Numbered from the stretch's first letter, positions 3,772 to 39,598 are shown. The stretch: DNA of 52,466 bases from a virus (IMGVR_UViG_3300037042_001548:1-52466); one strand, 5' to 3'. Translations and numbers: made by a program. The notes: a model not told the origin generated them from the letters alone.

Positions 3772-3782
3772 TGGATAAAGAA

Positions 3783-3962: not shown

Positions 3963-3971
3963 GCGACAAAG

Positions 3972-4424: not shown

Positions 4425-4426
4425 TC

Positions 4427-4921: not shown

Positions 4922-4922
4922 A

Positions 4923-5432: not shown

Positions 5433-5467
5433 TAGGCCTGTGTTAATTGCAACCTGTAGGAGATACA

Positions 5468-5638
5468 ATGGCAACAAGTAAGCCTGTTTGGGAAAAACAA
5501 CGGCCCGCATCTCTTGGTAAGTCAAAGCCTTTGTCGCCGCAGAAAAAAGCGGCAGCCAAAGCAAGGGCAAAAGCCGCTGGGCGGCCTTACCCAAACCTTG
5601 TTGACAACATGGCAATGGCCAAAAAGCGGGGCAAGTAA
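5468..5638 (+). CDS. small basic hypothetical protein
   Basis: 56 aa Lys/Arg/Ala-rich (MATSKPVWEK...RPYPNLVDNM); AGGAG RBS. Confidence 0.7.
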   Translation: MATSKPVWEKQRPASLGKSKPLSPQKKAAAKARAKAAGRPYPNLVDNMAMAKKRGK

Positions 5639-5639
5639 G

Positions 5640-6275
5640 ATGACTTCTGCCGCAGCAATGACGTATAGCTCATTGGTGGATGACATTGAGTCATACTTGG
5701 AGCGTACTGATCAAGCCACCATTGAAAAGATCCCAACATTTGTCATGTTGGCAGAGCAAATCATTGCGTCTGAAATCAAGTTCATGGGCAACCTTACCGT
5801 CAACACCTTCAATTTGGTGCAAGGCGAAGCGGTTGTGCAAAAGCCTGCTCGTTGGCGCAAGACCGTGTCAATGAACATTGTAGTCAACGGCCAGCGTGAG
5901 CCCGTTTTGTTGCGTAAGTATGAGTACCTGCGCAACTACTGGCCTAATCCTACGCAGCAAGACACACCGCTATACTACGCTGACTACGACTACTTTCATT
6001 GGCTAGTTGCGCCTACGCCTAACGCCGCTTACGCAGCTGAAGTGCTTTACTACGAGCGTATTCAACCGCTAGACTCAAACAATCAAACCAATTGGTTTAC
6101 GATGTACGCGCCGCAGGCGCTGCTATATGGCACATTGCTCCAAGCAATGCCTTTTCTTAAGAACGACGCTCGTGTGCAACTTTGGCAAACAATGTACTCA
6201 CAGTACATGGCGGCGCTGAAAGCTGAAGACCTGCAGCGCCTGGGTGATCGTCAAACCGTAGCGGTGGATTCATGA
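5640..6275 (+). CDS. head-tail adaptor / tail tubular protein A-like
   Basis: MTYSSLVDDIESYLER...VAPTPNAAY...NQTNW...APQALLYGTLLQAMPFLKND pattern of podovirus adaptors; position before tail genes. Confidence 0.7.
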   Translation: MTSAAAMTYSSLVDDIESYLERTDQATIEKIPTFVMLAEQIIASEIKFMGNLTVNTFNLVQGEAVVQKPARWRKTVSMNIVVNGQREPVLLRKYEYLRNYWPNPTQQDTPLYYADYDYFHWLVAPTPNAAYAAEVLYYERIQPLDSNNQTNWFTMYAPQALLYGTLLQAMPFLKNDARVQLWQTMYSQYMAALKAEDLQRLGDRQTVAVDS

Positions 6276-7510
6276 CTACATACAGTTCCCCTTTTGCAGG
6301 TGACGTTGTACAGCCAACTGATGTTAGCTACGCAGCGTTTATCACAAGCACTGACATTGTTTTGCAGTGGCCTGTTAATGGCAATAGCTCAACTGACGTT
6401 GCGGCACGTGTCATGGACGTTGCTGCAAATGCTGCCAATCTTAAGATGTATATGCCACCGGCCAATCAGGTCTCGGTTGGCAATGACGCACTGATTTCAG
6501 TTACTGCAGGTAATGACCTTGAGATTGTTAGCTACAACGGCACAACCATATGCACTGTTGAAGTTGGAAAAAGCCAGTACATCTACGTTACTGACAACAG
6601 CACTGAAGATGGCACTTGGGGCGTAATTGCGTTTGGCGCAACAACATCCAGCGCAAACGCGGCAACGTTAGCAGGCGCAGGCTTAGTAGCTTCTTCCAAC
6701 ACGCTAAATCAAAGCCATCCATCAGCTAGTGCAGTAAATGGGCAGACTTTTAGCGCAGCAAATAGGGCAGAGACTGTTATTTGGATTGGTGGCTCTGGGT
6801 CAGGCACGTTGCCTACCGCCTTGTCAATTGGCGATAACTGGTTTATGCTGTTTAAGAACAACGGCAGTGGCACATACACTATAAATTGCACAGGCCTTAA
6901 CACAATTGATGGCGTATCAAGCAAAGGCTTTGCGCCAAACGAATCGGCGTTTATCGTGTGCACGGGCGCAGCATACGTGACCATTGGCTATGGCGTTAGC
7001 AACCAATTTGCGTTTACCGCGCTTGTTAAGCCTGTTGTTTCAGGTTCGTATACGCTTACAAACAATGAGGCGTCATCAACAATTCAAGAATTTACGGGTA
7101 CACTAACAGGCAATGTTACAGTTGTGTACCCACAAGTTGTTAACTTTTATGTTGTCTCAAACCAAGTTGTTGCAGGGGGTTATACACTCACTATTACGAC
7201 AGGCGTAGTTGGGGCGGCAAACGCCATTGTGCCTGCTGGGCAGCAAGCAACACTTGTGTGTGACGGCACAAACTTTTACAACGCCAATACTGTACAAGCA
7301 GGCGCAACAACGGTTAGTCTTGCAAACGGCACTGCGGCAAATCCTGCACTAAGTTTTGCCAGTGAGACTAATACAGGCATGTATCGTCCTGGCGCTGGGC
7401 AGCTTGCATTTTCGATACTTGGTACAGACCGCGCAGTTGTCTCTGCAAGTGGGGTAACTGTTACTGGCTCAGGCACGTTTACAACAGGCATTGCAGGAGG
7501 TACTTTCTAA
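6272..7510 (+). CDS. tail/fibre-anchor structural protein
   Basis: 412 aa beta-rich; GTAANPALSFASETNTGMYRPG fibre motif; C-terminal GGTF; ATGA overlap with the upstream gene. Confidence 0.7.
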   Translation: MTTYSSPFAGDVVQPTDVSYAAFITSTDIVLQWPVNGNSSTDVAARVMDVAANAANLKMYMPPANQVSVGNDALISVTAGNDLEIVSYNGTTICTVEVGKSQYIYVTDNSTEDGTWGVIAFGATTSSANAATLAGAGLVASSNTLNQSHPSASAVNGQTFSAANRAETVIWIGGSGSGTLPTALSIGDNWFMLFKNNGSGTYTINCTGLNTIDGVSSKGFAPNESAFIVCTGAAYVTIGYGVSNQFAFTALVKPVVSGSYTLTNNEASSTIQEFTGTLTGNVTVVYPQVVNFYVVSNQVVAGGYTLTITTGVVGAANAIVPAGQQATLVCDGTNFYNANTVQAGATTVSLANGTAANPALSFASETNTGMYRPGAGQLAFSILGTDRAVVSASGVTVTGSGTFTTGIAGGTF

Positions 7511-10500
7511 TGACCTCAAAAGTCTTTGCCCTTGACACTAAGCCCGGTATTCAGCGGGATGGTACCGTGTTTGACAAAGACTTTTACGTTGATGGCCGCT
7601 GGGTGCGCTTTCAGCGTGGCCGGCCTCGTAAAATTGGTGGGTATCGCGAAATACTGGCAACATTGGCTGGGCCTTCTCGCGGGATGTACTTAGACCCGCA
7701 ATCAACGTTTACAAATGTCTATAGCGGGTACGCTTACGGTTTGCAACTAGTACCTATTAACAACGATGGCATTGGTACAGGGCTGCTCGACCTTACACTG
7801 TCAAACTTTACGCTTAATGACCGCAATATGTGGCAGTTTGATGCTTTGCGGGACTCAGGCGGTGGTGGCAACGACACATTGGTTGCGCACCCTGGGCAAA
7901 ACTTAACCGACATTGACAACCGCGTTAATACGCCTGTTCTTGCAGGCGCAATTGGCGGCACTACCATGTCGCAAGTAGGCGTATTTCAAACTGCAAATTC
8001 ATATCTGAATAACACAACAGCTGTTACGCTTAGTTCGCTAAATGACTTGATTGGCGCTGGACAAACTGTTACAGGCACAGGCATTTCTCCAAATACTGAA
8101 GTAGTGTCAACTGCAATTGCTACTGACATTTTAGCGTCCGTTGCAGTTACAGGCACGGCAGGCACGTTTTCTTGCACGTCAACGTCAGGGCTGTTTGTTG
8201 GGCAAACCGTGCAAGTAGCTGGCGCGCTAGGCAACATCACGCTGTCGGCGGTTACTGTTACCGGCACAGCGGGTACGTTTTCTTGCACTGCAACCACCGG
8301 ACTATACGTAGGCCAGGCAGTTAATGTAACAGGCACAACGGATACGCAAACGCTTGCTAGTGTTGCAATTACAAGCGGCGCAGGCGAGTTTTCGTGCACT
8401 GCAACAACTGGGCTTGCAGTTGATCAGGCTGTGCTTGTTACTGGGATTGTAAGCACGCAGACGCTTGCGTCGGTTGCAATTACAAGCAATGAAGGCGCGT
8501 TTTCGTGCACTGCAACAACGGGTTTGTATGTAGGTATGCCTATGCGTGTTTCTGGCACGCAAACAGCTGCAACATTGGCAGGCGTAGCCGTTACCGGTAC
8601 AGCAGGGGAATGTTCTTGTACTGCAACCAATGGTCTATACATCGGCCAGCCGGTTGTGGTAACCGGCACGCTTACGGGCACTGCAACGGGCGTTGCAGGT
8701 AACCAAGTCTACTACATCATTGCGACGGATGGCACCTCAACGTTTACGCTGTCTTTGGCGCCTGGCGGTACTGCAATTGTTACCACTGCAGGCACAACAA
8801 CTGGGTTGACGTTCAAAGCTACGCTGTTTAGCGGCATTGCGTCAAACGCCACGTATTACGTCATTGCCACCAACGGCACCTCAACCTTTACGTTGTCTGC
8901 GTCGCAAAATGGCCCAGCCATTACAACGGTAATTGTAGGCATCACAGGCTTGACGTTTACCGGGCAAGCATCCACAGGGATTACGCCTGGATTGACCTAC
9001 TACATTGCTGCAACCAACGGCACGTCCACATTTAGTCTATCTACAACCCGTGGCGGCACGGCCATCAGCGGCACGTACGGCTCAACAACCGGTTTAACGT
9101 TTAAGACCTACCCTTATGCAGGCGTAGTGACTGGCACAACGTACTACATCATTGCCACCAATGGCACCTCAACATTTACGCTGTCTGCCACTAGCGGCGG
9201 TGCAGCAATTACTACGGTGGTGACCTCGGTTGCAGGCTTAGTCTTTACCGCGCCAAAAAGCATTGGGCTAACCTCAGGCACAACGTACTACATCATAGCG
9301 ACAAACTACTCAACTACGTTTACGCTTTCAGCAACAGCAAGTGGATCTGCTGTTACCACTGTTGTAACGCCGACAACGGGGTTTGTCTTTACGCTAGGCC
9401 CATATCAGAAAGTCATACTTAACAACAGCGCAACAGCTTCAGGCGCGTCAGTTTTGACCTTCAACAACAACATTGCAGTTTCTGGCGGCGTGGTGTCGTT
9501 GCACCCTTATCTGTTTGTCTACGGCAACAACGGGTTGATTAAGAATTGCTCTGCCGGTGATTTGCAAAATTGGGTTGCTGCGGATGCCAATGAGACCAAC
9601 GCGGCATCGACCAAGATTGTTCAAGGCCTACCAGTTAGGGGCGGCTCAAACGCGCCGTCTGGGCTTTTTTGGAGCCTTGATAGCGTAATACGTGTCAGCT
9701 ATGCACCAACCACGGTAGGGGCCTCTCAAATCTATTGGAGGTATGACATCATTAGTAGTCAGTCATCCATTCTCTCAAGTCAATCTGTGATTGAGTACGA
9801 TGGCGTTTACTACTGGTGTGGCGTGGATCGCTTTTTGATGTACAACGGCGTCGTCAAAGAGATCCCCAATAACATGAATCAAAACTACTTTTTTGACAAC
9901 TTGAACTACGCGCAGCGTCAAAAAGTCTATGCAACCAAAGTGCCTCGTTTTGGCGAGATTTGGTGGTTCTACCCAGAAGGCGACGCAACGGAGTGCACAA
10001 ACGCAGTCATTTACAACGTGCGTGAAAATTGCTGGTATGATGCCGGTAACGCCCCTGGCGCACGCCGGTCAGCAGGCTACTTTTCGCAGGTGTTTCATTA
10101 TCCTGTCAACGCGGACTGGACGCCTAACGTTGCTGGGATGCTAAAGACGTTGACCATTGCAAACGCCGGTAGTGGCTACACCAATGGCACATACACAAAC
10201 GTTACGCTAACCGGGGGCAGTGGCTTGTACGGAACTGCCAACATTACGGTGTCAGGCGGCGCAGTAACCGCTGTTGCCATCAACAATGCGGGCGTAAACT
10301 ATGTAGCTGGTGACATCTTAGGCGCGCCATCTTTGCCGGCAGGCGCTGGTTTTAGTTTGACAGCTACGCACGTTGTGTCTAAGGTGTCGCTGTACCAGCA
10401 TGAAGTCGGCGTTGATGAGCTTAAATCAGGCAACACTTTTGCAATTGAGTCTTATTTTGAGACCAACGACCTAGGGCTTGTTTCAGGCGGGCCTTCGCAA

Positions 10501-10782
10501 CCTAGCGCGGTTGGCGAAAACGTATGGCTGCGGTTGGAGCGTGTTGAGCCTGACTTCATCCTGTCAGGGGAAATGTCTTTGTTTGTTGTAGGTAGACCCT
10601 ATGCACAAGAAGACGATTACACCTCGCAAGCCTATACGTTTGATGCAAATACAGGTAAAATCGACATGAAAGAGCAGCGGCGTGAGCTGCGTCTTCGTTT
10701 TGTCTCCAACACCCAAGCCGGTGACTACCAAGTAGGCAAGGTGCTACTGAATGCGGATGCCGGCGATGTAAGGGGTTACTGA
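7510..10782 (+). CDS. tail nozzle / tail tubular protein B-like, with large repeat insertions
   Basis: 1090 aa. N-terminal PGIQRDGT..WVRFQRGRPRKIGG and C-terminal FGEIWWFYP...VIYN...WY beta-propeller-type motifs, interrupted by repeat blocks. Confidence 0.75.
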   Translation: MTSKVFALDTKPGIQRDGTVFDKDFYVDGRWVRFQRGRPRKIGGYREILATLAGPSRGMYLDPQSTFTNVYSGYAYGLQLVPINNDGIGTGLLDLTLSNFTLNDRNMWQFDALRDSGGGGNDTLVAHPGQNLTDIDNRVNTPVLAGAIGGTTMSQVGVFQTANSYLNNTTAVTLSSLNDLIGAGQTVTGTGISPNTEVVSTAIATDILASVAVTGTAGTFSCTSTSGLFVGQTVQVAGALGNITLSAVTVTGTAGTFSCTATTGLYVGQAVNVTGTTDTQTLASVAITSGAGEFSCTATTGLAVDQAVLVTGIVSTQTLASVAITSNEGAFSCTATTGLYVGMPMRVSGTQTAATLAGVAVTGTAGECSCTATNGLYIGQPVVVTGTLTGTATGVAGNQVYYIIATDGTSTFTLSLAPGGTAIVTTAGTTTGLTFKATLFSGIASNATYYVIATNGTSTFTLSASQNGPAITTVIVGITGLTFTGQASTGITPGLTYYIAATNGTSTFSLSTTRGGTAISGTYGSTTGLTFKTYPYAGVVTGTTYYIIATNGTSTFTLSATSGGAAITTVVTSVAGLVFTAPKSIGLTSGTTYYIIATNYSTTFTLSATASGSAVTTVVTPTTGFVFTLGPYQKVILNNSATASGASVLTFNNNIAVSGGVVSLHPYLFVYGNNGLIKNCSAGDLQNWVAADANETNAASTKIVQGLPVRGGSNAPSGLFWSLDSVIRVSYAPTTVGASQIYWRYDIISSQSSILSSQSVIEYDGVYYWCGVDRFLMYNGVVKEIPNNMNQNYFFDNLNYAQRQKVYATKVPRFGEIWWFYPEGDATECTNAVIYNVRENCWYDAGNAPGARRSAGYFSQVFHYPVNADWTPNVAGMLKTLTIANAGSGYTNGTYTNVTLTGGSGLYGTANITVSGGAVTAVAINNAGVNYVAGDILGAPSLPAGAGFSLTATHVVSKVSLYQHEVGVDELKSGNTFAIESYFETNDLGLVSGGPSQPSAVGENVWLRLERVEPDFILSGEMSLFVVGRPYAQEDDYTSQAYTFDANTGKIDMKEQRRELRLRFVSNTQAGDYQVGKVLLNADAGDVRGY
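8128..9390 (+). repeat. coding repeat block: 5 x 111 bp (37 aa) followed by 5 x 144 bp (48 aa)
   Basis: A units begin at 8128, 8239, 8350, 8461, 8572. The B-unit YY motif is at 8710, 8854, 8998, 9142, 9286. Confidence 0.95.
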
Positions 10783-11039
10783 TGTCTGGTCCTGCGCTGA
10801 TCTACGACCCACGAGGTCACACCTTTGAGTCGTGGGCCGCGTTGATGGTTGAGCTGTACGCAGCGCAGCAGCTGGAAGTACCTACGCAGTTGACTGACTG
10901 GCAGTTATGGGGTGAAGGCCTTAAGGCTATTGACGTCTTTACCAACGAGGCCATCCCAGGCACACGAAACTTTGCAAACTGGTTTGATTGGGCTGAGGCA
11001 CTGGTCAATGCGGTAAACCCTGCAACGCAAACAACATGA
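10782..11039 (+). CDS. hypothetical virion-associated protein
   Basis: 85 aa Trp-rich; translationally coupled on both sides. Confidence 0.75.
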   Translation: MSGPALIYDPRGHTFESWAALMVELYAAQQLEVPTQLTDWQLWGEGLKAIDVFTNEAIPGTRNFANWFDWAEALVNAVNPATQTT

Positions 11040-11452
11040 GCACAAATTACGACGTTGATCAAGAAGCAGTGTTGAAGATAGTCACTGACTTTTTCCGCAA
11101 GTCAACAAAAACTGAAGAGGAGGCCCAAGGCCTGCTCAATGGTTTGGCTCGCGTGATTCAAGATGAAGGGGCGAAACTGGTTCATCTCGGGAGCGTGCTT
11201 TTTCTGGTCTTGGTTCGCGGCCAGGGCGTGGTGGAGGTTCACACCATTGGTGAAGAGAAGCGCCCAAGGGACTTGGCAAAAGACTTTCTTGACCTTTCAA
11301 GATACTTGAAAAACATTGGCGTCACAACAGCCTACACCTACTCGGAGGACGAAAAGTTTAAGAAGCTCGCAAAGATGGTTGACCTTCCGGTGCAAGAGTA
11401 CAAAGCCGAAGTGGAAGGCAAAAAACTCAACGTATACGTTGTGGAGTTGTAA
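11036..11452 (+). CDS. hypothetical protein (possible GNAT-like fold, at the position of T7 gp13)
   Basis: 138 aa between the tail and ejection genes; fold guess is from secondary-structure pattern only. Confidence 0.6.
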   Translation: MSTNYDVDQEAVLKIVTDFFRKSTKTEEEAQGLLNGLARVIQDEGAKLVHLGSVLFLVLVRGQGVVEVHTIGEEKRPRDLAKDFLDLSRYLKNIGVTTAYTYSEDEKFKKLAKMVDLPVQEYKAEVEGKKLNVYVVEL

Positions 11453-14400
11453 ATGCCAGCAGTACCATTTATTGCTATTGCCCTGGGGGCTTCTGGAGCG
11501 CTCGCTGTTGGAGGCGCCGCCCTTGCAACGGCTATTGGCATTGGGACTGTTTCTACTGCCGCAGCCACTGCCATTGGCGCTGCAGCTTTTTCGGGCCTTG
11601 CCACGGCTGTGCAGGGCGGTAGCGCAAGTCAAGTTCTCAAATCAGCAGTTCTTGGCGGGGTTACGTCTTACGCCGGTTCCGCCATTGCTGGGTCAGTTGC
11701 AAACTCTGTTGCAAGTTCGGCTACTGGGGTCAGTACTGGCGTTGCGCAAGCAATGGGAAGGGTCGCTGGGTCTGCCGTTGCTGGTGCAATTACATCGGGG
11801 ACTTCCGCCCTTCTGACAGGCAAGGGGGATCCGATTGAGGCGCTTTTGAAAGGCGGCATCACAGCCGCTTTGAGCGCAGGGGTCGGAGAAGGCGTTGGTG
11901 TGATTTTGAAAGATGTCCCGGTGCTCGGGAATCCGATGAACAGTACTGAGGCCGCTATTTCTCGTGCCACACGCGCTGCAATTGGCACAGCAATTGTTTC
12001 TGGAGGCGACACGGCTCAAATTGGCACTGCTGTTCTAAACTCTTTTGCGCGAACTGCAGGTTTGCTTGCAGGCCAGCAAATAAGGGACTCCAGCTCTCAA
12101 TTGTCTTCTGCAAACGAGCAGTTTAGGGCTTCTGAGCAGGCATATTCCAGCAATCTTGAATCTCAGAACAGCCTTGTAAATCAATACAACACTGCAATAC
12201 AGCCTTTGGTTGAGCAAAAAACTCAGCTTGATGGATTAATTAAATCATACGACGACTTTGCATATAGGTACAATAACTATGACTCTTATATGCAAAGTAA
12301 GGGGTATAAATACGATATAACTGGCTATGATTACGATGGTAATTACCATTATGGCTGGGTTAAGCCAGAATGGCAGCCTGAGCGTCGCATAGACCAACTT
12401 GATGAGTACAACAATTATAACTCGTACATTCAATCCGCTGGATATGTTAATGTTGCAGCGCCCAGAGAAGAATCAAAAGATTATTTTCTTGAAAAAGCAA
12501 GAGCAATTGACTCTCAAGCTACAGCTCTTGCAAATGACCTGAATACTAAAACCACAAATCTTCTTGGCGGCGAGGTAACCAAATACAGGACGGAGACTGT
12601 CACAAAGTATGCGGGAAGTAATGACTGGGAGGGGAATTGGATTGAAACGCCATATACAGAACAAGTTCAAGTCCCATACAAGGAAACTGTTACTGGGTCA
12701 TTGACGCCAATTAAAGATCAACTTGAGCAGTTAAAAGGCCAAACTGAATCCCTTGGCGAAAACCTTCTTTCTGCAAAAACAAATCTTGAGAAAGCAGTTG
12801 AAGATTTCAACATCACAGAAACAGCCAACGCTGCTGTGGTGGATCAGCAGCTTAAAAACTTTACCACTGCAAGCAATCAGTACAAAGCTGAATTTGGAGT
12901 TGACCCAACGCAAGAACAGTTAACGCAATTTGCGGCAACTGGGGATATTCTTGGTCATGTCAGCAAGCTGGTTGCAGACAACAACAACGAGCAGTTTGCA
13001 AAAGAGTCCGGCTTTAAGAACTACGCCGACTTCACTGCCGCTGGCAATGTCTCTCCCAATGATTTTTATGCCCAACAACAGGGATGGCCAAATTACGCTC
13101 AACAACTCAACGCCCAGAACAACGGCTACACCGATTTCGCCGCTTGGGACACTTACCTAAACAATCAGCAGACGGCTGTTGAAAACGGCTTCGTAAATTA
13201 CCAAGACTACCAAAGCGCCGGTAATCAGACATCGAACGACTTCTACGCCAAAAAAGAAGGCTGGACAGACTACGCTCAAAAACAGCAGGCGCAAGATTCT
13301 GGATTTCAAACGCCGACCACATGGACGGCCAAATTAAACCAAGACAAGGCAGAGTCAAGGGGCTTTAAAAACTTCGCCGACTACACAGCCGCTGGTGGTG
13401 ATGAAGGAGTCAAGGGACTTTTCGGTCGTCGCTACAATGTATCTGCTGAAGACTTTTATGCCAGACAAGAGGGTTGGCAAAACGCCGTCCAAAAAATAGA
13501 AGCTGAAAAGTCTGGATTTAATGACCCCACATCTTGGAATAACCAGCAAACTGCCAAAAATAGCGGCTTTCCTGATTACGCCACTTACCAGCAATATGCT
13601 GGCGACAAAGAGGCATACACGACGGCGCAAAATAACTCTGCTGCAGTAGCCGCAGGCTTCCCAGACTACGCAACACAACAATCTTTTGGGGGCGACGTTG
13701 AGGCGTATAGGAACGCACAAAACGAGATAATTGCGAAGAACGCTGAGTTTCCTGATTTTAATACTTTTAAGCAATTTAACGGGGATCTTGAGCTTTATCA
13801 AAACTTTACTCGTGATGAGAGCGCAAAAGCTGCAGGCTTTCCAGATTATGAGACTCAAGTCACATATGGTGGGGACAAGAACGCATACACGACGGCGCAA
13901 AATAACTCTGCTGCAATAGCTGCTGGCTTTCCTGATTACGCCACTTATCAGCAATATGATGGCGACAAAGAAGCGTACACGACAGCGCAGCTTGGCAATA
14001 ACCTTACGCTGCTAACACAGGAAGAGCTTGATAAGCTGGCGTACAAGCCGCCGCCAATGTTTACAGGCGAAGAGACTGCGTGGCTGTCGCCTGCAAATGA
14101 CGCTACACTGCGTGATGTGTCAACTAAAGATCCTCAGTTTTGGCCTAAATTTAATGATGTTGTAGAAAAAGAAATTGCGCTTGGGAACAAAGGTTACTTT
14201 CGTGACCTTGGAAATGGCAAGTACGCAAACATTGACAGAAATGGCGACCTAGTTTACGTTTGGCAAAAAGGCTCTAATGGAAATTGGACTACTCTTAATC
14301 TTACCAACGCAGAAAGAGAAGATTATGAGTCAAGGCTTGGCGCAGCTATAGCATCAGGCGCCGCTACGCAACGGCCTACTGGTGACGATACGCAGCAGCC

Positions 14401-16495
14401 TACTGATGGCGCAGGTACGCAGCAGCCTACTGATGGCGCAGGTACACAGCAGCCTATTGATGGCGGTATGCAGCAGCCTACTGATGGCGGTACGCAGCAG
14501 CCTACTGATGGCGGTACGCAGCAGCCGGGTCCCACAGAAGTAGCAGACTTTTTTGATAAGTTTGGTGCGCTGTTTAGCTTTGGTACACCCGACTTGACAG
14601 GCAAGCTATCTGTGTTTGGGCCAGGTAGTACTGGGCCTGACCGCGATGACTTTGCCATTTTGGCATTTGATAGTCCTGTTCAAAAACAAGATGCTATCAT
14701 TTGGGTTGATAACCTTGTTGACGTAGTTGAAAGCAACCCCAACGCCACACAAGCTGATAGAGACAAAGCTCAACAAATTCAAGAGCAAGTGCATAGCGCG
14801 CCAGTTGCAGGTGCAGGTCTACCTGTTGAGGGTGATAACACGCAAACTGGCGGCGCACTACCTATTGGCGGGGGCGATGCAGTTGCTGGTAGCGGCGGTG
14901 GTGGCGATACACTTACTGGCGGCGGTGGCTCACTAACTGGCGGTCTTTCTTATGATATAGATCCAGATTTTGGCAGTGAGCTAGCACTCCCTGACGGCGG
15001 TGGCGATACACTTACTGGCGGTGGTGGCTCACTAACTGGTGGTCTTTCTTATGATATAGACCCGGATTTTGGCAGCGAGTTGGCGCTACCTGGCGGTGGC
15101 GACGGCGCAATAACTGGCGGCGGCGGCTCGTTAATTGGTGAGGGCGGTCCCTCTTCCGATATAGACCCAAATTTTGGCGGCGGCGCACTTACTGGCGCTG
15201 GTGGCACGCCCCCTGGCGGAGGCGCATTGCCTGTTGACGGCAACGACACGCTTACGGGTGGTGCGCTTACTGGTGGCACTGGCGGAGGTGGTGCGCTTAC
15301 TGGTGGTACTGGTGGTACTGGTGGTACTGGTGGTACTACCATTGTTGATGGTACTGGTGGTACTGGTGGTACTACCATTGTTGATGGTACTGGTGGTACT
15401 GGTGGTACTGGTGGTACTGGTGGTACTGGTGGTACTGGTGGTACTGGTGGTACTGGTGGTACTGGTGGTACTGGTGGTACAACCGGTACTGGTGGTACAA
15501 CCGGTACTGGTGGTACTACCATTGTTGATGGTACTGGTGGTACTGGTGGTACTGGTGGTACTGGTGGTACAACCGGTACTGGTGGTACTACCGGTACTGG
15601 TGGTACTACCATTGTTGATGGCACTGGCGGTACTGGCGGTACTGGCGGTACTGGCGGTACTACCATTGTTGATGGTACTGGTGGTACAACCGATACTGGC
15701 GGTACAACCGATACTGGCGGTACAAACAATACTGGCGGCGGGCGCCCGGTTGTAGTTACCCCGACCCCTGACGTCCCACAGCCGCCAAGCCCTTTGAGAG
15801 TTGCAGCTGCCAGCTCAGCTGATACTACGCAAGGCGCGTTGCCTATTGCGCTCAACCCATCTCTATTACAGGCAGCGCCTGTTACTGAAGGAGCACCTTT
15901 AGCCATGCAAGAACTTCCACAGCTGTTTCCGCAGCTTACAAACATTGACCCACGCTTGATGCAGGTGCTTTCAGGTCGTAGCAATGCCAAACCTGGCTAC
16001 TACAACTATGGGCAACAGTCAAACGCGCAATCCCCGCTTTTAGGCGCCAGCATTTCCGGATTGCCAAGCGCAGGCATTCCCGTTCGTGCAACGTCAAACG
16101 CATACAGCCCTTTAAGCGCAGGCGCAATGAGCGGCAATTCTCGTGACCTTATGTCGGCGGGTATGAACATGCTTGGAGGTGGCGGCGGCGGGCTATCGGG
16201 TTACGCCGCTGGAGGTGGTGTTGAAGGGCATAACCCAAAGTTCATTACAGGCAAAACAGGGTATTATGTCCGTGGTGAAGGCGACGGCCAGTCCGACTCC
16301 ATCCCCGCGATGTTGGCCGATGGTGAGTATGTGTTCGACGCTGACACGGTTGCAGCATTAGGCAACGGCTCAAATGAGGCTGGGGCCCGCGTTTTGGATA
16401 AAATGCGTGAGAACCTTAGAAAACACAAGCGGTCCGCCAAGCATGGTGAAATTCCGCCTCCTGCCAAGTCGCCCTTGGCTTACATGAAAGGTTGA
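11453..16495 (+). CDS. large internal virion/ejection protein with low-complexity repeats
   Basis: 1680 aa: hydrophobic Ala/Gly N-terminus, coiled coil, GF(P/K)(D/N)Y repeats, GGT tracts, C-terminal YAAGG...GDGQSDSIPAMLADGEYVF module. Confidence 0.75.
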   Translation: MPAVPFIAIALGASGALAVGGAALATAIGIGTVSTAAATAIGAAAFSGLATAVQGGSASQVLKSAVLGGVTSYAGSAIAGSVANSVASSATGVSTGVAQAMGRVAGSAVAGAITSGTSALLTGKGDPIEALLKGGITAALSAGVGEGVGVILKDVPVLGNPMNSTEAAISRATRAAIGTAIVSGGDTAQIGTAVLNSFARTAGLLAGQQIRDSSSQLSSANEQFRASEQAYSSNLESQNSLVNQYNTAIQPLVEQKTQLDGLIKSYDDFAYRYNNYDSYMQSKGYKYDITGYDYDGNYHYGWVKPEWQPERRIDQLDEYNNYNSYIQSAGYVNVAAPREESKDYFLEKARAIDSQATALANDLNTKTTNLLGGEVTKYRTETVTKYAGSNDWEGNWIETPYTEQVQVPYKETVTGSLTPIKDQLEQLKGQTESLGENLLSAKTNLEKAVEDFNITETANAAVVDQQLKNFTTASNQYKAEFGVDPTQEQLTQFAATGDILGHVSKLVADNNNEQFAKESGFKNYADFTAAGNVSPNDFYAQQQGWPNYAQQLNAQNNGYTDFAAWDTYLNNQQTAVENGFVNYQDYQSAGNQTSNDFYAKKEGWTDYAQKQQAQDSGFQTPTTWTAKLNQDKAESRGFKNFADYTAAGGDEGVKGLFGRRYNVSAEDFYARQEGWQNAVQKIEAEKSGFNDPTSWNNQQTAKNSGFPDYATYQQYAGDKEAYTTAQNNSAAVAAGFPDYATQQSFGGDVEAYRNAQNEIIAKNAEFPDFNTFKQFNGDLELYQNFTRDESAKAAGFPDYETQVTYGGDKNAYTTAQNNSAAIAAGFPDYATYQQYDGDKEAYTTAQLGNNLTLLTQEELDKLAYKPPPMFTGEETAWLSPANDATLRDVSTKDPQFWPKFNDVVEKEIALGNKGYFRDLGNGKYANIDRNGDLVYVWQKGSNGNWTTLNLTNAEREDYESRLGAAIASGAATQRPTGDDTQQPTDGAGTQQPTDGAGTQQPIDGGMQQPTDGGTQQPTDGGTQQPGPTEVADFFDKFGALFSFGTPDLTGKLSVFGPGSTGPDRDDFAILAFDSPVQKQDAIIWVDNLVDVVESNPNATQADRDKAQQIQEQVHSAPVAGAGLPVEGDNTQTGGALPIGGGDAVAGSGGGGDTLTGGGGSLTGGLSYDIDPDFGSELALPDGGGDTLTGGGGSLTGGLSYDIDPDFGSELALPGGGDGAITGGGGSLIGEGGPSSDIDPNFGGGALTGAGGTPPGGGALPVDGNDTLTGGALTGGTGGGGALTGGTGGTGGTGGTTIVDGTGGTGGTTIVDGTGGTGGTGGTGGTGGTGGTGGTGGTGGTGGTTGTGGTTGTGGTTIVDGTGGTGGTGGTGGTTGTGGTTGTGGTTIVDGTGGTGGTGGTGGTTIVDGTGGTTDTGGTTDTGGTNNTGGGRPVVVTPTPDVPQPPSPLRVAAASSADTTQGALPIALNPSLLQAAPVTEGAPLAMQELPQLFPQLTNIDPRLMQVLSGRSNAKPGYYNYGQQSNAQSPLLGASISGLPSAGIPVRATSNAYSPLSAGAMSGNSRDLMSAGMNMLGGGGGGLSGYAAGGGVEGHNPKFITGKTGYYVRGEGDGQSDSIPAMLADGEYVFDADTVAALGNGSNEAGARVLDKMRENLRKHKRSAKHGEIPPPAKSPLAYMKG
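14366..15735 (+). repeat. coding tandem repeats (24/27-bp TQQPTDG units, 2 x 99-bp unit, 9-bp GGTGGTACT tract)
   Basis: Directly visible at 14366-14527, 14900-15097 (period 99) and 15299-15735; all unit lengths are multiples of 3. Confidence 0.95.
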
Positions 16496-21985: not shown

Positions 21986-22037
21986 TACCTTTCAAAAGTC
22001 AAAAAAGTGTGGGCTAGCCACACGTGAATTATACATC
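21986..22037 (-). promoter_or_regulatory. promoter (-10 TATAAT), hairpin and TTTGACTTTTGAAAGG leader
   Basis: TGTATAAT at 22028-22035, stem gtgtgg/ccacac at 22007-22023, leader motif at 21986-22003. Confidence 0.7.
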
Positions 22038-22811
22038 CAAAAGCCAACAGGAGAAGGCATGTTTGTCGTCAATGCATTTCGTACTCAAGAGTTGAGCCTC
22101 ATGCGTTGTGATGTATGGCGGTCTATCTGCCACTGGCAGGTAGGAATTGGTTGATAGGATCTTATTGAACATCTCCATGCGCGACTCGTAGACATGAAAA
22201 GAGCCTGCGGAGACGGTCAGCGTACCCATTTGAACAATCAAGAGTGCCGCAACGATCTCATGCAAAAACGAGAATGTTGGCAAGTCATTTGCCATACCCC
22301 ACAGAATGTCTTGACTTCGCATGATGGCGCGCATGTTAAGCTTGCCATCCCTAAGCCTAAACTCAATGGCCAAGGTACAAGGCACATCCTTGGCCTCGGG
22401 GTCCATATGGTCTACGTCGGAGCCGTACATGGGGATCACCGCACGACGGGACATGGGGTCTTGCTTTAAGATGTGGTGTATGAACCCTACACCGTGGGGG
22501 CCAAACCAATAGCTACCGTAGTTGCTATTGAGCTTGCCATTGAGCACGATCTTGCCCCACTGCGCTGCGTGCGCGGCAATAGATAGGTCATGCGGATCGG
22601 CTTTGATGTACCAAGCCATTTCGCGCTTTAGGTACTTCAGATTGAAGTTGCGGCCTTCGAAAGAGTTGAACCTCACACCGGGGTCACATACGTATGAAAA
22701 GTTCTCAATTTCAAGACACTCAGCACCGCGTGGGCTGGCCCACTTACCCATCGTGGATAGCCCACGGTACAGGTTGATTAGCTCTTCCTCGGTTCTAATT
22801 CGCATTTCCAT
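22029..22811 (-). CDS. thymidylate-synthase-family enzyme, dCMP hydroxymethylase-like (T4 gp42 type)
   Basis: YLKREMAWY (E64), NSNYG, DPMSRRA, VPCT (C145), MRSQDILWGMAND (D176 where ThyA has Asn), GSFHVYE. Confidence 0.85.
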   Translation of the reverse strand: MEMRIRTEEELINLYRGLSTMGKWASPRGAECLEIENFSYVCDPGVRFNSFEGRNFNLKYLKREMAWYIKADPHDLSIAAHAAQWGKIVLNGKLNSNYGSYWFGPHGVGFIHHILKQDPMSRRAVIPMYGSDVDHMDPEAKDVPCTLAIEFRLRDGKLNMRAIMRSQDILWGMANDLPTFSFLHEIVAALLIVQMGTLTVSAGSFHVYESRMEMFNKILSTNSYLPVADRPPYITTHEAQLLSTKCIDDKHAFSCWLLDV

Positions 22812-23730
22812 AGTCAGCCTCAGTGATGTGGTAGGGTTGGTTGGGAAAATTTTGCATGTGGTACAACGGCGGCGGTAATTTGTAAGCACGCACCTCGTTG
22901 TTCAACGCCCATGTGTACGCGTTGTTGCCTAACGCAAAGATTTTGCTAGGCTTTAGCGCGGCAATAAACGCCGGTGATGTAGGCGTACCTTGATACGTTT
23001 GTGTGTTAGCCCAGTACAGCTGCGTTTCAGCAATGCCTTCGCGCTCAAGTGTATCCGCCAGCATACGACTAGGGCCGTCGTTATCCTGGAAGTTGATGAA
23101 AGGCACAACGGCTGCGGAGGGCCGCACATTTGCACGTGGGCCTTTATCGCAAAGCATCAAGATGTTGCCTTCACGAAAACAGCCGCCTCCAGAATGTTTG
23201 TTTGTGTATGACTTATCATTCAGCTGCTGAAGAAGTTCGCTGAGTGTCCCAGAAGTGTAATCATATTGGATTACTGGTAGGCATGTACGCTGCGGCAGCT
23301 GCTCGTACTCATCATAGACCTGTTTTAGCTGCCCGATGGTGTCAAGGTACTCATCATCAATGCGCGACATGAACGTCTTTGCGCAAACTTCAAAGTCAGG
23401 TTGGCATTGCACAACAACGGCGCCGCGGGACAAGGCCACCCGTTCAAGCATGCGCCGCCTTGGCATATCAACGCGATTTTCGCCTTTACGATATACGCTG
23501 CCGTAAATAGGCTCAGACAGCCATGACCTATCCATGATGACGTGGTCATCGTAGGTTAGGGCCTGCGACATAGAGCGAAAAAAGATTTTGCAAAGATCCT
23601 CACTTTGTACGCCTTTGTATGGGCCGTGCTTGATGACATGCGTCATGCCGTTGCTTTGCAACTGCGCACGCAATGTCTCAGCTAGCGTCGTTTTACCGCC
23701 GCCATCTGGCCCCTCAAGAATGATGATCAT
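22795..23730 (-). CDS. dNMP (thymidylate-type) kinase fused to a C-terminal UDG-like domain
   Basis: IIILEGPDGGGKTT P-loop and IMDRSWLSEPIYG; the last ~130 aa resemble the uracil-DNA glycosylase superfamily. Confidence 0.8.
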   Translation of the reverse strand: MIIILEGPDGGGKTTLAETLRAQLQSNGMTHVIKHGPYKGVQSEDLCKIFFRSMSQALTYDDHVIMDRSWLSEPIYGSVYRKGENRVDMPRRRMLERVALSRGAVVVQCQPDFEVCAKTFMSRIDDEYLDTIGQLKQVYDEYEQLPQRTCLPVIQYDYTSGTLSELLQQLNDKSYTNKHSGGGCFREGNILMLCDKGPRANVRPSAAVVPFINFQDNDGPSRMLADTLEREGIAETQLYWANTQTYQGTPTSPAFIAALKPSKIFALGNNAYTWALNNEVRAYKLPPPLYHMQNFPNQPYHITEADYGNAN

Positions 23731-24617
23731 TTAAGAATGCTTTCAAGTTTTGCAAGTGTTTCAGGCCTAGTTGCGGTTTTTAAGCTGGTGATTTGCTGCC
23801 CAACCAATTGTTGGTGCTGCTCATCGTTCATGGCCTCAATCTCATGCAGTGTATGACTATACGCAGGGCCAATCATTCCAAGCTCTTTAGGATCTCCGCC
23901 AAGGATTGCCCCGGTGTGTGCAGCGTGCAGGTAACGGACTCGCCACCATCCGCAACCCGCATGGGCATAAGTCGGACAAAGAACGCCTTTGTAGCTCCCG
24001 TACTCCCAGACAACGTCACTTTCAAGGATGCGTGGCTGTCCGAGTGCCTTTCCACCAACGCTATAAATTGGCCACGATAGATTTTGTTGGCTTGCCCACT
24101 CATGTGCCTCCCTCGATAGCGACGCGTTGTACCACTCAGCTTTTCTGTAACGCCACGCAAAATGATGGCAACCTGGAGACTCGTACAAAGGCGACGGATC
24201 CCACGTGTGGATGACATCAACCGGCAAGCCCATTAGCTTAGGGTCACCCCATGGGAACAACGGGGCCAGCCATACATGCTGTTGCAAATCAGCCGCAGGA
24301 ATAACATGCTCCCATGAAGGCAGAATCTTCTGGAAGGCCCAATCATCCAAGCTAATAATAGCATCCATACGCTCTTGCAAAACCCTTTTGGGGCCTTCTG
24401 GATGCACAGCATTGTTGTCCAATGGGTACATGTAGAGGAACACCTTGTCAAACTTTGACAGGTCAGTGTCCTCACGCACATAGTCATGTGTTACCTCATG
24501 CCCAAGGGCCTTAAAGCCTTCGCGCATAAGCTCGGGGATTGACACAAACTTTGTAGAGCTTGCGCGCCTGGGGTTGTTGTTATGCGTCTCAGTGACGCCG
24601 GTAATGAGGATCTTCAT
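23727..24617 (-). CDS. putative DNA glycosyltransferase (GT-B, beta-glucosyltransferase-like)
   Basis: MKILITG...ALGHEV...DLSKFDKVFLY...LDDW N-terminal Rossmann pattern; GWWRVRYLHAAHTGAI in the C-domain; operonic with the dCMP enzyme. Confidence 0.65.
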   Translation of the reverse strand: MKILITGVTETHNNNPRRASSTKFVSIPELMREGFKALGHEVTHDYVREDTDLSKFDKVFLYMYPLDNNAVHPEGPKRVLQERMDAIISLDDWAFQKILPSWEHVIPAADLQQHVWLAPLFPWGDPKLMGLPVDVIHTWDPSPLYESPGCHHFAWRYRKAEWYNASLSREAHEWASQQNLSWPIYSVGGKALGQPRILESDVVWEYGSYKGVLCPTYAHAGCGWWRVRYLHAAHTGAILGGDPKELGMIGPAYSHTLHEIEAMNDEQHQQLVGQQITSLKTATRPETLAKLESILK

Positions 24618-24832
24618 ACAACGGCAAGAGAAATGTAGCCAGCCTCAGCGTCGTGGTTCACATCACCCGTGCGGCCGCCGAACTCAAGGTACTTTGCCAC
24701 GGTCATGCCGGACTCATACAGCGCAAACCGCGTCCACGCACGTGTGCCTTTACGCTTTGGGTTTTCAGTAGCCAAAACGGTAATGATGGCGGCTTTATTC
24801 GCGCGACGACGCGCCTTCTTTTCTTCAGTCAT
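24614..24832 (-). CDS. small basic protein (72 aa), possibly DNA-binding
   Basis: NPKRKGTRAWTRFALYESGMTVAKYLEFGG..DVNHD...GYI; AGGAG RBS; ATGA overlap with the glycosyltransferase. Confidence 0.75.
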   Translation of the reverse strand: MTEEKKARRRANKAAIITVLATENPKRKGTRAWTRFALYESGMTVAKYLEFGGRTGDVNHDAEAGYISLAVV

Positions 24833-24880
24833 GCTGACTCCTACAGGGTTATGGAAAAATTGTTGCTGCTGCATTGCATT

Positions 24881-24912
24881 CTTTTCAAACATCAACAGAG
24901 GCCATTGTATCA
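24881..24912 (-). promoter_or_regulatory. extended -10 promoter candidate for the modification operon
   Basis: TGA-TACAAT (TGn plus -10) at 24904-24912, followed by the leader-motif variant GTTGATGTTTGAAAAG at 24881-24896. Confidence 0.5.
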
Positions 24913-31035: not shown

Positions 31036-31140
31036 TGAGGTGGGGGCCTCGATTTGGGTTTTAGCTTGTTGCAGCAGAAAGCCAGAAAATGCTGCAAATC
31101 ACCATCCTCGAACGCAGGCTTAACAGCCCCCAGAAACTCA
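31036..31140 (-). ncRNA. candidate structured RNA with nested stems and a pseudoknot
   Basis: Pairings TGAG/CTCA, TGGGGGC/GCCCCCA, TCGA/TCGA, TTGCAGCA/TGCTGCAA, plus loop GGCTT complementary to AAGCC. Confidence 0.5.
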
Positions 31141-31878
31141 ATACTTATTGCTAGTTGCAGGGGCCTCGGCCGACTGCTCCTGATCAACCTCACCCGCGGT
31201 TTCAATGGCGCGTTGCGTTTCGATCTTGGCACGCTCCATCAGCGCGCTAATGACCGCCGAGTCCTCAATGGCTTTGATCAGGCTAAAGGTAACCTTGAAC
31301 TGCGTTTTGGCGTCAGGCACCACAGCAATCTCGCTGATCACAGCCAAAGGCGGCCGCTTCAACGTAGTTGCCACCGTCTGCACGTAGGTGCTATAGTTCT
31401 TCAGGCTGGTAACAGGCGGACGCAGCGCGGCAACCTCAGCAGCTTTAACAGCCTCGACCGAGCCAATGCTATCGGCGGGGATCACCAACAGCCGGCGCGT
31501 TTCGCGGCAAGCTTTGCCTTTGCCACCATTTGTTGCCGAGCCCCATTCATTCTTGGGGCAGCCTTCGCAGGTGTCATGCTGCTTGCCTTCGGCGCGATCG
31601 GATGGGCCCATACCGGTTGCAATGGCTGCAATGGCAAAGCACTTCGGCCCAACCAACTTGGTGGGGTCGTACCTGGTGTCATAGTACAGCCGCTCAATAG
31701 GGGCTTGCAGAATCACACACTGCAGCTTATTGCCGGTAATGGGGTTGCCCCGGTAGGTCAGGGCGCCATTCTTGGTGGAAAGGAAGGTAGCACCAAGGCC
31801 GGATTGCTCCGCCTTCACTGAGTCCACGGCCATCTTGGCCAACTCATCTTCAAACAGGGCGACTTGATTTTTCGACAT
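31138..31878 (-). CDS. putative single-stranded DNA-binding protein
   Basis: Start MSKNQVALF; CEGCPKNEWGS..GKGKAC, LRPPVTSLKN, acidic tail; replication context. Confidence 0.6.
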   Translation of the reverse strand: MSKNQVALFEDELAKMAVDSVKAEQSGLGATFLSTKNGALTYRGNPITGNKLQCVILQAPIERLYYDTRYDPTKLVGPKCFAIAAIATGMGPSDRAEGKQHDTCEGCPKNEWGSATNGGKGKACRETRRLLVIPADSIGSVEAVKAAEVAALRPPVTSLKNYSTYVQTVATTLKRPPLAVISEIAVVPDAKTQFKVTFSLIKAIEDSAVISALMERAKIETQRAIETAGEVDQEQSAEAPATSNKY

Positions 31879-31900
31879 GGCTAAAGCTCCTTGTAACATG

Positions 31901-32278
31901 TCACTTGCGACGAACACTGAGTTCCCAAACATCCGACGTGGATGTTCCGGGGATAGACTCGCCTGCTTCCCAGCGCTCACGGAATGCAGTCGAGGACAGC
32001 CGCTTATGCAGCAGTTCAAATTGTTTGGTATCAGCGACGTAGCCATAGAAGGCTTGCCAATCGTTGATGGCGGGGTGACGCACCAGCTTCATAGACAGGG
32101 ACGCCTTATCGCTGGCGGCCTGCGTAATGCCAGCATGCGACATCAAATCCATGATGTCTTTTTCAAGGCCGGCCAGATCTGTGGTGCATTTGCGTACGTC
32201 TTCAGAGAGTGACTCACGGCGAGCCTTGATCTCTACGTACTTGTCAATGAGGTCTTTGATGTTCATAGTACTGCTCAT
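31901..32278 (-). CDS. hypothetical replication-module protein
   Basis: Coiled coil followed by INDWQAFYGYV...ELLHKRLS...IPG. Confidence 0.75.
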   Translation of the reverse strand: MSSTMNIKDLIDKYVEIKARRESLSEDVRKCTTDLAGLEKDIMDLMSHAGITQAASDKASLSMKLVRHPAINDWQAFYGYVADTKQFELLHKRLSSTAFRERWEAGESIPGTSTSDVWELSVRRK

Positions 32279-39548: not shown

Positions 39549-39592
39549 CGTATAATGCGTAGGCAATCTCGCGCTTGCGAGACTTAAGAGGG
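39549..39592 (+). promoter_or_regulatory. promoter (-10 TATAAT), hairpin and RBS of the giant gene
   Basis: CGTATAATGC (identical to 35056-35065 on the minus strand); stem tctcgc/gcgaga at 39567-39582; AAGAGGG. Confidence 0.55.
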
Positions 39593-39598
39593 TCAAGC

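Follow-up and report, generated by a model that had tools for sequence, protein, structure and literature searches.

Replacement of cytosine by glycosylated 5-hydroxymethylcytosine (5hmC) is a classic counter-defence of phages that has been studied almost wholly in large T4-like phages. The T4 pathway comprises the deoxycytidine triphosphatase (dCTPase) gp56, the deoxycytidine monophosphate (dCMP) hydroxymethylase gp42, the deoxynucleoside monophosphate (dNMP) kinase gp1, and alpha- and beta-glucosyltransferases. Gene clusters for glycosylated 5-hydroxycytosine are described in the phages RB69 (gp45-48), DLP3 (gp78-80) and RL38JI (gp214-216) (Lee et al., NAR 2026, PMC13326640). The subject of this study is a four-gene operon in IMGVR_UViG_3300037042_001548, a linear virus record from IMG/VR that is 52,466 bases long, with an estimated completeness of 79% (the whole stretch is referred to as the window); the evidence throughout is computational.

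The four genes lie on the minus strand (24832 to 22029), their ends overlapping by 4, 4 and 17 nucleotides (nt) when read on the sequence and its translations. They encode, in order, a small basic protein, a GT-B-like enzyme, a kinase fusion and a thymidylate synthase homologue, exactly as claimed in the original prediction, which had been made from the sequence alone. It is fairly likely that the operon encodes a T4-like pathway of cytosine replacement and glycosylation, leading to glycosylated 5hmC in a small phage with a PolA-type polymerase. This reading draws on domain identities, active-site signatures, synteny and co-occurrence, from which we infer the chemical steps, the sugar and the role of the 72-residue protein.

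In the proposed pathway, a MazG-type pyrophosphatase encoded outside the operon would convert dCTP to dCMP, and the synthase homologue would use dCMP and methylene-tetrahydrofolate to form 5-hydroxymethyl-dCMP (5hm-dCMP). The kinase domain of the 311-residue protein would yield the diphosphate and a host nucleoside diphosphate (NDP) kinase the triphosphate, from which the phage PolA would incorporate 5hmC into DNA. After replication, the GT-B enzyme would move a sugar onto the hydroxyl of 5hmC; the window yielded no sugar-nucleotide genes, which makes a host NDP-sugar, e.g. uridine diphosphate (UDP)-glucose, the probable donor. DNA of this kind would withstand restriction enzymes and, probably, CRISPR nucleases. 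The original prediction had already proposed a C5-modified dCMP that is phosphorylated, incorporated by PolA and glycosylated in DNA, and every in-silico test run agrees with it; its further suggestion of an undescribed base is speculative.

The synthase homologue

The product of the fourth gene matches the Thymidylat_synt family (Pfam PF00303; 62.1 bits, cut-off 24.3) and phrog_160 (E 2.4e-35). Its best sequence matches in the PDB are the cytidine monophosphate hydroxymethylase MilA (2.5e-14) and the T4 dCMP hydroxymethylase (4.1e-12), which come before the true thymidylate synthases. Translation, HMMER and MAFFT alignments identified the key residues E64, D142, C145, T146, D168, G172 and D176, the last within the motif RSQDILWGMAND; at the aligned position T4 gp42 reads RSNDVVFGFRND and Escherichia coli ThyA has N177. 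Counting and alignment thus uphold the original assignment of E64, C145 and Asp176, as well as the contrast that it drew between Asn177 of ThyA and the Asp of T4 gp42. In the MAFFT alignment C145, E64 and R165 correspond to the catalytic Cys146, Glu58 and Arg166 of ThyA and are invariant in 40 homologues. The signature, defined as ThyA positions 58/143/146/147/169/173/177 and aligned with enzymes of known or published type from annotated records (Table 1), is kept in all 40 of these proteins, at identities down to 35%.

Table 1 Signature residues of the synthase homologue and of reference enzymes, in ThyA order
Enzyme	Signature
Window synthase	E D C T D G D
T4 gp42	E D C T D G D
phiAS4 gp42	E D C T D G D
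RB69 gp48 (5-hydroxy-dCMP synthase)	E E C T N V D
PaMx11 dUMP (deoxyuridine monophosphate) hydroxymethylase	Asn at 177
Xp12 dCMP methylase	E N C P D G D
E. coli ThyA	E L C H D G N

Residue rules in ThyA numbering have been tested in vivo: N177D marks a dCMP substrate, L143D/E accompanies products other than methyl, and D169N is the mark of flavin-dependent 5-hydroxy-dCMP synthases (PMC13326640). Positions 177 and 147 were found independently to be associated with modified cytosine in metaviromes, where N177D synthases are common (PMC8670742). In the window synthase positions 143, 169 and 177 are all Asp (the D/D/D signature), which agrees with the earlier suggestion that 5hm-dCMP is the most likely product. 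Asp169 and Asp177 are both present in 78 of 80 related viral loci, the other two being truncated or containing an ambiguous base, and Asp is found three residues before the catalytic Cys (position 143, counted back from the Cys) in 78 of the 80.

The gene content by itself would also suit a different product. The trio of genes is the same as in the RB69 gp45-48, DLP3 gp78-80 and RL38JI gp214-216 clusters (PMC13326640, Table 1), and N177D together with an acidic residue at 143 is common to the window synthase and the 5-hydroxy enzymes, so that the window enzyme might be a flavin-dependent 5-hydroxy-dCMP synthase of the RB69/DLP3/RL38JI type, with the glycosyltransferase adding sugar directly to 5-hydroxycytosine. 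We regard this as distinctly unlikely. The Asn169 of the RB69-type enzyme is replaced by Asp in the window (Asp168) and in the same 78 of 80 relatives; the window synthase keeps G173, where RB69 gp48 has Val, and RB69 gp48 falls outside the window clade in the synthase tree, though on a very long branch. The 5-hydroxy product, which the original prediction had left in play, is consequently disfavoured.

A phylogeny of the synthase had been proposed as a check on the original prediction. A maximum-likelihood tree built from 20 sequences recovers the window clade as monophyletic (support 100/99) and joins it to the Xp15/Acinetobacter-phage clade as its sister (89/81), apart from E. coli ThyA and the Xp12 dCMP methylase, which group together (100/97). 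The 5-methyl product, also left in play earlier, is disfavoured in the same way: the Xp12-type methylase combines a non-acidic residue at 143 with a place beside ThyA, and the window synthase has Asp at this position (D142) and another place in the tree.

In Xp15-type phages, NodU-type carbamoyltransferases are encoded near the synthase genes. Such a pair of carbamoyltransferase and synthase underlies 5-carbamoyloxymethylcytosine, which is derived from 5hmC (PMC8670742). Because of the D/D/D signature, its place in the tree and the carbamoyltransferase pairing of its Xp15-type relatives, the product of the fourth gene is best read as a dCMP-specific synthase of the hydroxymethylating (T4 gp42) type, i.e. 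a putative 5hm-dCMP synthase.

The glycosyltransferase, the kinase-UDG fusion and other pathway genes

An AlphaFold2 model of the 296-residue protein, built on an alignment of 31 relatives, has a mean predicted local distance difference test score (pLDDT) of 91.3 and a predicted template modelling (TM) score of 0.88. Foldseek returned 42 PDB matches at E<=0.001, and those listed are all glycosyltransferases or related GT-B sugar-transfer enzymes, such as the selenosugar synthase SenB and the trehalose synthase TreT. The T4 beta-glucosyltransferase (BGT; 1j39) ranked first (E 1.8e-5, TM 0.52), and the T4 alpha-glucosyltransferase (AGT) and the glycosyltransferase of phage HY126 are likewise among the matches listed; the viral structure matches in BFVD are viral glycosyltransferases. 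The confident model and the rank of T4 BGT bear out the GT-B-like enzyme of the original prediction, and the protein is accordingly modelled as a GT-B-fold enzyme.

By sequence, the protein matches no Pfam, NCBIfam or named PHROG family, and no Pfam domain was detected in any of 86 relatives. Neither Pfam nor a profile built on the family (profile A1) places it in a sequence family with the T4 b-gt and a-gt products or the RB69 arabinosyltransferases. Profile A1 matches a 'glycosyltransferase' of Actinomycetia phage DSL-LC01, ORF0026 of Aeromonas phage phiAS4 and a protein of Gordonia phage Forza, and all three phages encode synthases with the D/D/D signature. The family thus appears to be an uncharacterised sequence family that accompanies dCMP hydroxymethylases.

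Two of these phages show further features. In phiAS4, three tandem genes for proteins of about 350 residues (ORF0025-0027; 3895-7167) include, in the middle, the member of the window family; the record annotates no glucosyltransferase in this stretch, and the phage has a gp42 homologue with the T4-type signature. DSL-LC01 is a 129-kb actinophage in which genes for a kinase-UDG fusion (see below), a D/D/D synthase and a dCMP deaminase follow one another (89-1929), and 7 kb on (8992-12613) come a glycosyltransferase of the same family, a UDP-galactopyranose mutase, a second, weaker glycosyltransferase relative and a MazG-like gene. This gene set suggests galactofuranosyl decoration.

The 311-residue product of the third gene has two domains. 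The first matches Pfam Thymidylate_kin only at its P-loop (E 3.6e-6) and phrog_761 over residues 1-171 (E 8e-24), and a profile of it matches Bacillus subtilis SPbeta YorR in the PDB over residues 2-171 (E 4e-10). In Foldseek searches the model of the whole protein (pLDDT 91.7) matched yeast Tmk (3tmk) and YorR (3kb2) at E 2e-7, with a TMt of up to 0.76; among the matches listed for the whole model there were only kinases. The domain's invariant residues include a GPDGGGK P-loop (GPDGxGK), the DR motif D67-R68, and the basic lid residues R86 and R97. The kinase profile also matches the small kinases encoded directly upstream of the Xp15, Effie, MD-2021a and Forza synthases, a kinase gene near the synthase of phage RsoM2USA, and RB69 gp45 (E 8e-8). 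The latter is listed as the 'nucleotide kinase' of the RB69 hypermodification cluster (PMC13326640, Table 1). The N-terminal domain is a Tmk/dNK/YorR-type nucleotide kinase and a candidate 5hm-dCMP kinase, in line with the dNMP kinase fusion originally proposed, the nature of whose fusion partner had gone unseen.

This second domain belongs, from its relatives, to the uracil-DNA glycosylase (UDG) superfamily: 22 of 68 relatives match the UDG family PF03167 at E<=0.01 (best 1.8e-9), and three profiles match family-4 UDGs and UdgX-type proteins in the PDB (E 0.003-0.06). One distant member of the family (P0109) gave no match when searched against the PDB with phmmer. When 1.84 billion representatives were searched in full with HMMER, 246 cluster representatives matched the UDG-like domain; nearly all are about 300 residues long and carry it C-terminally. 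In this domain family the kinase-UDG fusion is the prevailing architecture. Invariant or near-invariant across the family are the acid that follows 'LLVG', a Pro-Phe pair, the Asn of 'LYWxNA' and a His-Pro pair. In the window clade D195, F211 and N242 are kept, a Cys replaces the Gly before the motif acid, and motif B reads Pro-Pro: at the column of H287, His is found in at least 90% of the 68 relatives, while P288 is invariant. The domain is thus predicted to be a divergent member of the UDG superfamily that lies nearest to family 4. The acid of motif A and the His-Pro of motif B are presumed to have their catalytic roles in UDGs, and the conserved Asn242 is taken to correspond to the Asn with which family-4 UDGs recognise uracil. 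From these motifs, glycosylase activity is doubtful in the window clade and plausible in its relatives of the HPQ type.

An identity as an aGPT-Pplase-like domain was considered and dropped, as that family has a helix-hairpin-helix rather than a UDG fold (PMC8989533). Predictions of a complex between the fusion and the synthase scored 0.00 in both runs, which were made without controls, and are not used as evidence.

The UDG-like domain accompanies dCMP-specific synthases with or without a glycosyltransferase, which suggests that it serves cytosine replacement and not sugar transfer. Its role is most likely in cytosine replacement itself, e.g. in binding or policing uracil-type or unmodified bases, and in the window clade, where the motif-B His is lost, it may act by binding only. 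A further-reaching proposal, unlikely in our estimate, is that the fusion is an enzyme of a new kind, in which the provision of modified dCTP is coupled to the discrimination of bases in DNA, the UDG fold recognising unmodified cytosine or uracil-type bases. The HPQ clades would then excise such bases, which would enforce full cytosine replacement or aid in destroying host DNA, and the window clade would be a non-catalytic reader; jointly with this, the 296-residue enzyme may found a new family of DNA glycosyltransferases, shared with T4-like Aeromonas phages and actinophages, with a sugar that is perhaps not glucose.

The fusion could also be imagined to act wholly on DNA, the UDG fold flipping out 5hmC or another base and the kinase phosphorylating its hydroxymethyl group, in which case the base finally formed would be something other than a simple glycoside. 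A base-flipping fold joined to a kinase is what such an enzyme needs, by analogy with the 5-hydroxymethyldeoxyuridine DNA kinase (5-HMUDK) of thymidine-hypermodifying phages. The first prediction of 5-HMUDK and related systems was reportedly made by Iyer et al. in 2013. The prevalence of the fusion among the 246 representatives, almost all of the same length, would suit this activity, as would the presence of the fusion in AXL3-type phages that have no glycosyltransferase of the window family; 5-HMUDK is known to occur fused to other enzymes of hypermodification (PMC8989533). The kinase domain, however, is closest to small-molecule kinases (YorR, Tmk and dNK) along its full length, with the DR motif and basic lid kept, and the window yielded no second candidate for a 5hm-dCMP kinase. 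Nor did BLAST or profile searches give a match in the 25-kb hypermodification stretch of PaMx11, although which gene there encodes 5-HMUDK is not confirmed, and a GT-B enzyme requires its acceptor to carry a free hydroxyl. Kinase action on DNA therefore has only an outside chance, and a kinase acting on 5hm-dCMP is the preferred assignment.

Outside the operon, 7.7 kb away, the window encodes an all-alpha nucleoside triphosphate (NTP) pyrophosphohydrolase of the MazG/PRA-PH type that the original prediction did not list. The dCTPases listed for DLP3 and RB69 belong to this family type (PMC13326640, Table 1), and the protein is a candidate dCTPase whose substrate we infer from its family. A family-A DNA polymerase is encoded as well, together with an exonuclease, a primase, an endonuclease, a terminase and a portal protein. 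The description of a 'small PolA podovirus-like phage' stands in so far as PolA is encoded; its podovirus-like part is not established, none of the proteins found being one that decides the tail type. Among the scanned proteins of the window, no dCMP deaminase, dihydrofolate reductase (DHFR) or sugar-nucleotide synthesis gene was found, in a record that is incomplete and has many open reading frames (ORFs) without a family.

Several points weigh against a pathway to glycosylated 5hmC. The deep branches of the synthase tree do not resolve (8 of 17 inner branches are open) and the tree carries long-branch warnings, while the residue rules are drawn from a limited set of tested enzymes. The dCTPase is assigned by family alone, in a record short of full length. 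The TM-scores of the glycosyltransferase model are modest, that of T4 BGT included, the best among the matches listed being 0.64 (SenB), and profile A1 has no match in the T4, RB69 and AXL3 genomes (E<=0.001). DNA 5hmC is proposed as the acceptor from fold and co-occurrence, for a family without a characterised member. The isolated C-terminal domain of the fusion scores below the Pfam cut-off for PF03167 (E 0.061; 13.8 bits, cut-off 24.3), and a six-frame search of the window with PF03167 gave no matches.

Conservation and layout of the operon

Scanning viral contigs brought up 338 stretches that encode a relative of the fusion, and the best 80 were kept for synteny counts. The order glycosyltransferase, kinase-UDG fusion, synthase is found in all 80 of these IMG/VR loci, a conservation which indicates that the operon is more than a chance arrangement. 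A homologue of the 72-residue protein precedes the glycosyltransferase in 76 of the loci, and an SNF2 helicase homologue is present in 79. Protein searches returned between 86 and 248 clusters for each of the three enzymes. A blastn search of 50,697 phage records gave no nucleotide-level relative of the operon.

With distant family members as queries, a second scan brought in 8 loci outside the clade. In each of the 8 a synthase homologue directly follows the kinase-UDG gene and has Asp177, with Asp143 in 7; a glycosyltransferase of the window family is present in only one. The exception at position 143, locus L136 (7866-10225), encodes a longer synthase homologue reading E L C H D G D, a pattern like that of dCMP methylases, from which the fusion may also serve phages with 5-methylcytosine. 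Cultured phages with the fusion are AXL3, PW916 and DSL-LC01 (the last by profile), and each has a D/D/D synthase gene just downstream of it. The distant loci and the cultured phages argue that the constant partner of the fusion is the dCMP-specific synthase and not the glycosyltransferase, and in all 88 viral loci examined the fusion accompanies a dCMP-specific synthase.

Ordinary metabolism would make of the same genes a synthase of deoxythymidine monophosphate (dTMP) or 5-methyl-dCMP, a thymidylate kinase, a UDG for uracil repair and a glycosyltransferase with a target other than DNA. The labels thymidylate synthase and thymidylate kinase in the source databases are of this kind, and the conserved Asn242 would suit it if it is, as assumed above, the uracil-recognising residue. 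Such a role is very improbable in view of the invariant N177D, L143D and H147T replacements, the signature and tree position of the Xp12 methylase, which differ from those of the window synthase, the lack of a DHFR among the scanned window proteins, and the tight four-gene synteny that holds the glycosyltransferase in place in 80 of 80 loci. Cytosine replacement with glycosylation remains the preferred explanation.

Table 2 Positions of the operon genes, their domains, flanking signals and other pathway genes in the window
Feature	Position	Strand	Evidence or remark
SNF2-type helicase gene, 5' flank of operon	26288-24885	-	
Extended -10-like TGATACAAT, inside 3' end of SNF2 helicase gene	24912-24904	-	read from sequence
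Sigma-70-like site TTGAAA-18-AACAAT, 27 nt upstream of gene 1	24888-24859	-	9/12 consensus matches, weak
Gene 1, 72-residue basic protein, pI 9.9	24832-24614	-	translation
Gene 2, 296-residue GT-B glycosyltransferase, candidate DNA 5hmC glycosyltransferase	24617-23727	-	translation, model, Foldseek
Gene 3, 311-residue kinase-UDG fusion	23730-22795	-	translation
Gene 3 N-terminal domain, residues 1 to ~174, P-loop nucleotide kinase	23209..23730	-	Pfam, PHROG, Foldseek
Gene 3 C-terminal domain, residues 175-311, divergent UDG superfamily	22798..23208	-	Pfam in relatives, profiles
Gene 4, 260-residue thymidylate synthase homologue, dCMP hydroxymethylase signature	22811-22029	-	Pfam PF00303, alignment
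Terminator-like hairpin GTGTGGCTAGCCCACAC then TTTTTT, directly after synthase TAA stop	22023-22007	-	
240-residue protein gene, 3' flank of operon; Pro-rich linker, no family	21978-21256	-	ATG at 21978
Family-A DNA polymerase, 619 residues	27469..29328	-	phrog_17 E 1.9e-93
MazG/PRA-PH-type all-alpha NTP pyrophosphohydrolase, 138 residues	32275..32691	-	phrog_671 E 9.6e-26; PF01503 E 1.5e-16

The features are collected in Table 2. The extended -10 element from which the operon was originally proposed to be transcribed is present, and the consensus scan chose the sigma-70-like site closer to the first gene instead. Neither stands out: in a 6-kb region the scan found 3 promoter-like sites against 5.5 expected from shuffles, so the operon promoters are no better than chance. 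Terminator-like sites likewise show no excess (5 found, 7.0 in the shuffled expectation). The hairpin and T-run immediately after the synthase stop nevertheless fit an operon end, and 3' of the hairpin there is another -35/-10-like site, followed by the start codon of the 240-residue protein; the 3' boundary of the operon is better supported than its promoters.

The 72-residue protein is conserved only after its ATG, and its relatives share the core NPKR..(T/S)L...RF.LY..GMTV.EY...GGR.GD..hD...GYI. It has no Pfam, PHROG or NCBIfam match, and a search of the Atlas gave only unnamed viral clusters. The 240-residue protein is encoded after the synthase, in the same orientation, in 51 loci, where 64 loci extend at least 800 nt past the synthase, and it too matched only unnamed viral clusters in the Atlas search.

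Three other ORFs of the window are without a clear family. A 302-residue protein of the replication region (31138-32046, minus strand) matches only PHROGs without an assigned function (phrog_27714, E 3.6e-22) and is present in 47 of the 80 related loci. On the plus strand, an ORF of 1994 residues (39575-45559) has no PHROG match, and the sole match in one of 1680 residues (11453-16495) covers 49 residues and is to a tape-measure family.

Comparison with known systems

The chemistry proposed here is known from T-even phages, and the trio of synthase, kinase and GT-B enzyme has already been published with 5-hydroxycytosine (PMC13326640). As far as found, the kinase-UDG fusion, the glycosyltransferase family and the compact operon in a clade of small PolA phages have not been described. 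No kinase-UDG fusion was found in the literature covered, with supplements, which may list such fusions, lying outside its scope; a word search of the main text of the MetaGPA study found neither kinase, glycosylase, glycosyltransferase nor UDG.

In this phage the whole logic of glycosylated cytosine replacement would be packed into 2.9 kb, in a clade that is abundant in metagenomes. Two candidate families are highlighted, namely the DNA glycosyltransferase, which also occurs in T4-like Aeromonas phages and Gordonia phages, and the kinase-UDG fusion. Such compact modules would be handy when modified DNA is to be made in a heterologous host, and in the search for new enzymes reading or writing 5hmC.

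The closest synthase among cultured phages is that of the jumbo Ralstonia phage RsoM2USA (5962-8446), which is 40% identical, has the D/D/D signature and a separate small kinase nearby. Far off in the same genome (MG752970, 265770-266204) lies a stand-alone UDG-like gene of the same clade, so that RsoM2USA holds an unfused version of the trio. Next among cultured phages come Xp15 and the Acinetobacter phages Effie, MD-2021a and HHU4, whose synthases form the sister clade (32-38% identity) and are directly preceded by a small P-loop kinase. Their kinase is unfused, at about 160 residues, and decoration is by a NodU-type carbamoyltransferase instead of a glycosyltransferase (Yang et al., eLife 2021, PMC8670742).

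A UDG-superfamily domain fused to an enzyme of nucleotide or DNA synthesis in a pyrimidine-replacing phage has a parallel in the SP-15-like phages with hypermodified thymine, which encode PolA-UDG fusions (PMC13697223). There, by the same account, the UDG is active, is attached to the polymerase and is linked to thymine, whereas in the window the partner is a kinase, the base would be cytosine and the motif His is missing.

The fusion itself is shared with Stenotrophomonas phage AXL3 (gp27-31) and Pseudoxanthomonas phage PW916, at 33-34% identity over 93-96% of the query. In both phages its gene (gp29 in AXL3) directly precedes that of a D/D/D synthase, and an NTP pyrophosphatase is encoded alongside. 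They differ from the window in having no glycosyltransferase of its family (tested for AXL3), in its place a methyltransferase and a dCMP deaminase, and in UDG-like domains that retain HPQ. The synthases of both phages, each following the fusion, read E D C T D G D; gp28 of AXL3 (NC_071036, 5971-7744) is annotated as a thymidylate synthase and the PW916 homologue (2346-4098) as a deoxyuridylate hydroxymethyltransferase. The published annotation of AXL3 describes a dTMP pathway and calls the fusion a thymidylate kinase, and AXL3 DNA is cut by just two of 37 restriction enzymes, both with A/T-only sites, and resists the other 35 (PMC7504290). This pattern fits cytosine modification, and a D/D/D synthase after the fusion would explain the restriction resistance of this phage-therapy candidate.

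The RB69, DLP3 and RL38JI systems resemble the window in clustering a synthase homologue, a Tmk-like kinase and a GT-B transferase (PMC13326640). Their synthases carry D169N and make 5-hydroxy-dCMP, whereas the window synthase keeps Asp169, and their kinases are unfused (RB69 gp45 has 182 residues). They also encode genes for arabinose- or galactofuranose-nucleotide synthesis, of which none was found among the scanned window proteins, and the glycosyltransferase profile of the window finds nothing in RB69.

With T4 the window shares the synthase signature, the GT-B fold with T4 BGT as the best PDB match, and an all-alpha NTP pyrophosphatase; the beta-gt gene adjoins gene 42 in T4 as well. The two differ in size and polymerase, the window phage having a genome of 52 kb or more with PolA and T4 being a 169-kb myovirus with a family-B enzyme. 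The window synthase is about 30% identical to the gp42 homologues of Aeromonas and Serratia phages, the glycosyltransferase profile matches neither T4 a-gt nor b-gt, and the kinase is Tmk/YorR-like, with no gp1 structure (1del/1dek) among the Foldseek matches listed. The window kinase, unlike that of T4, carries a UDG-like domain, and all four genes lie in one overlapping operon.

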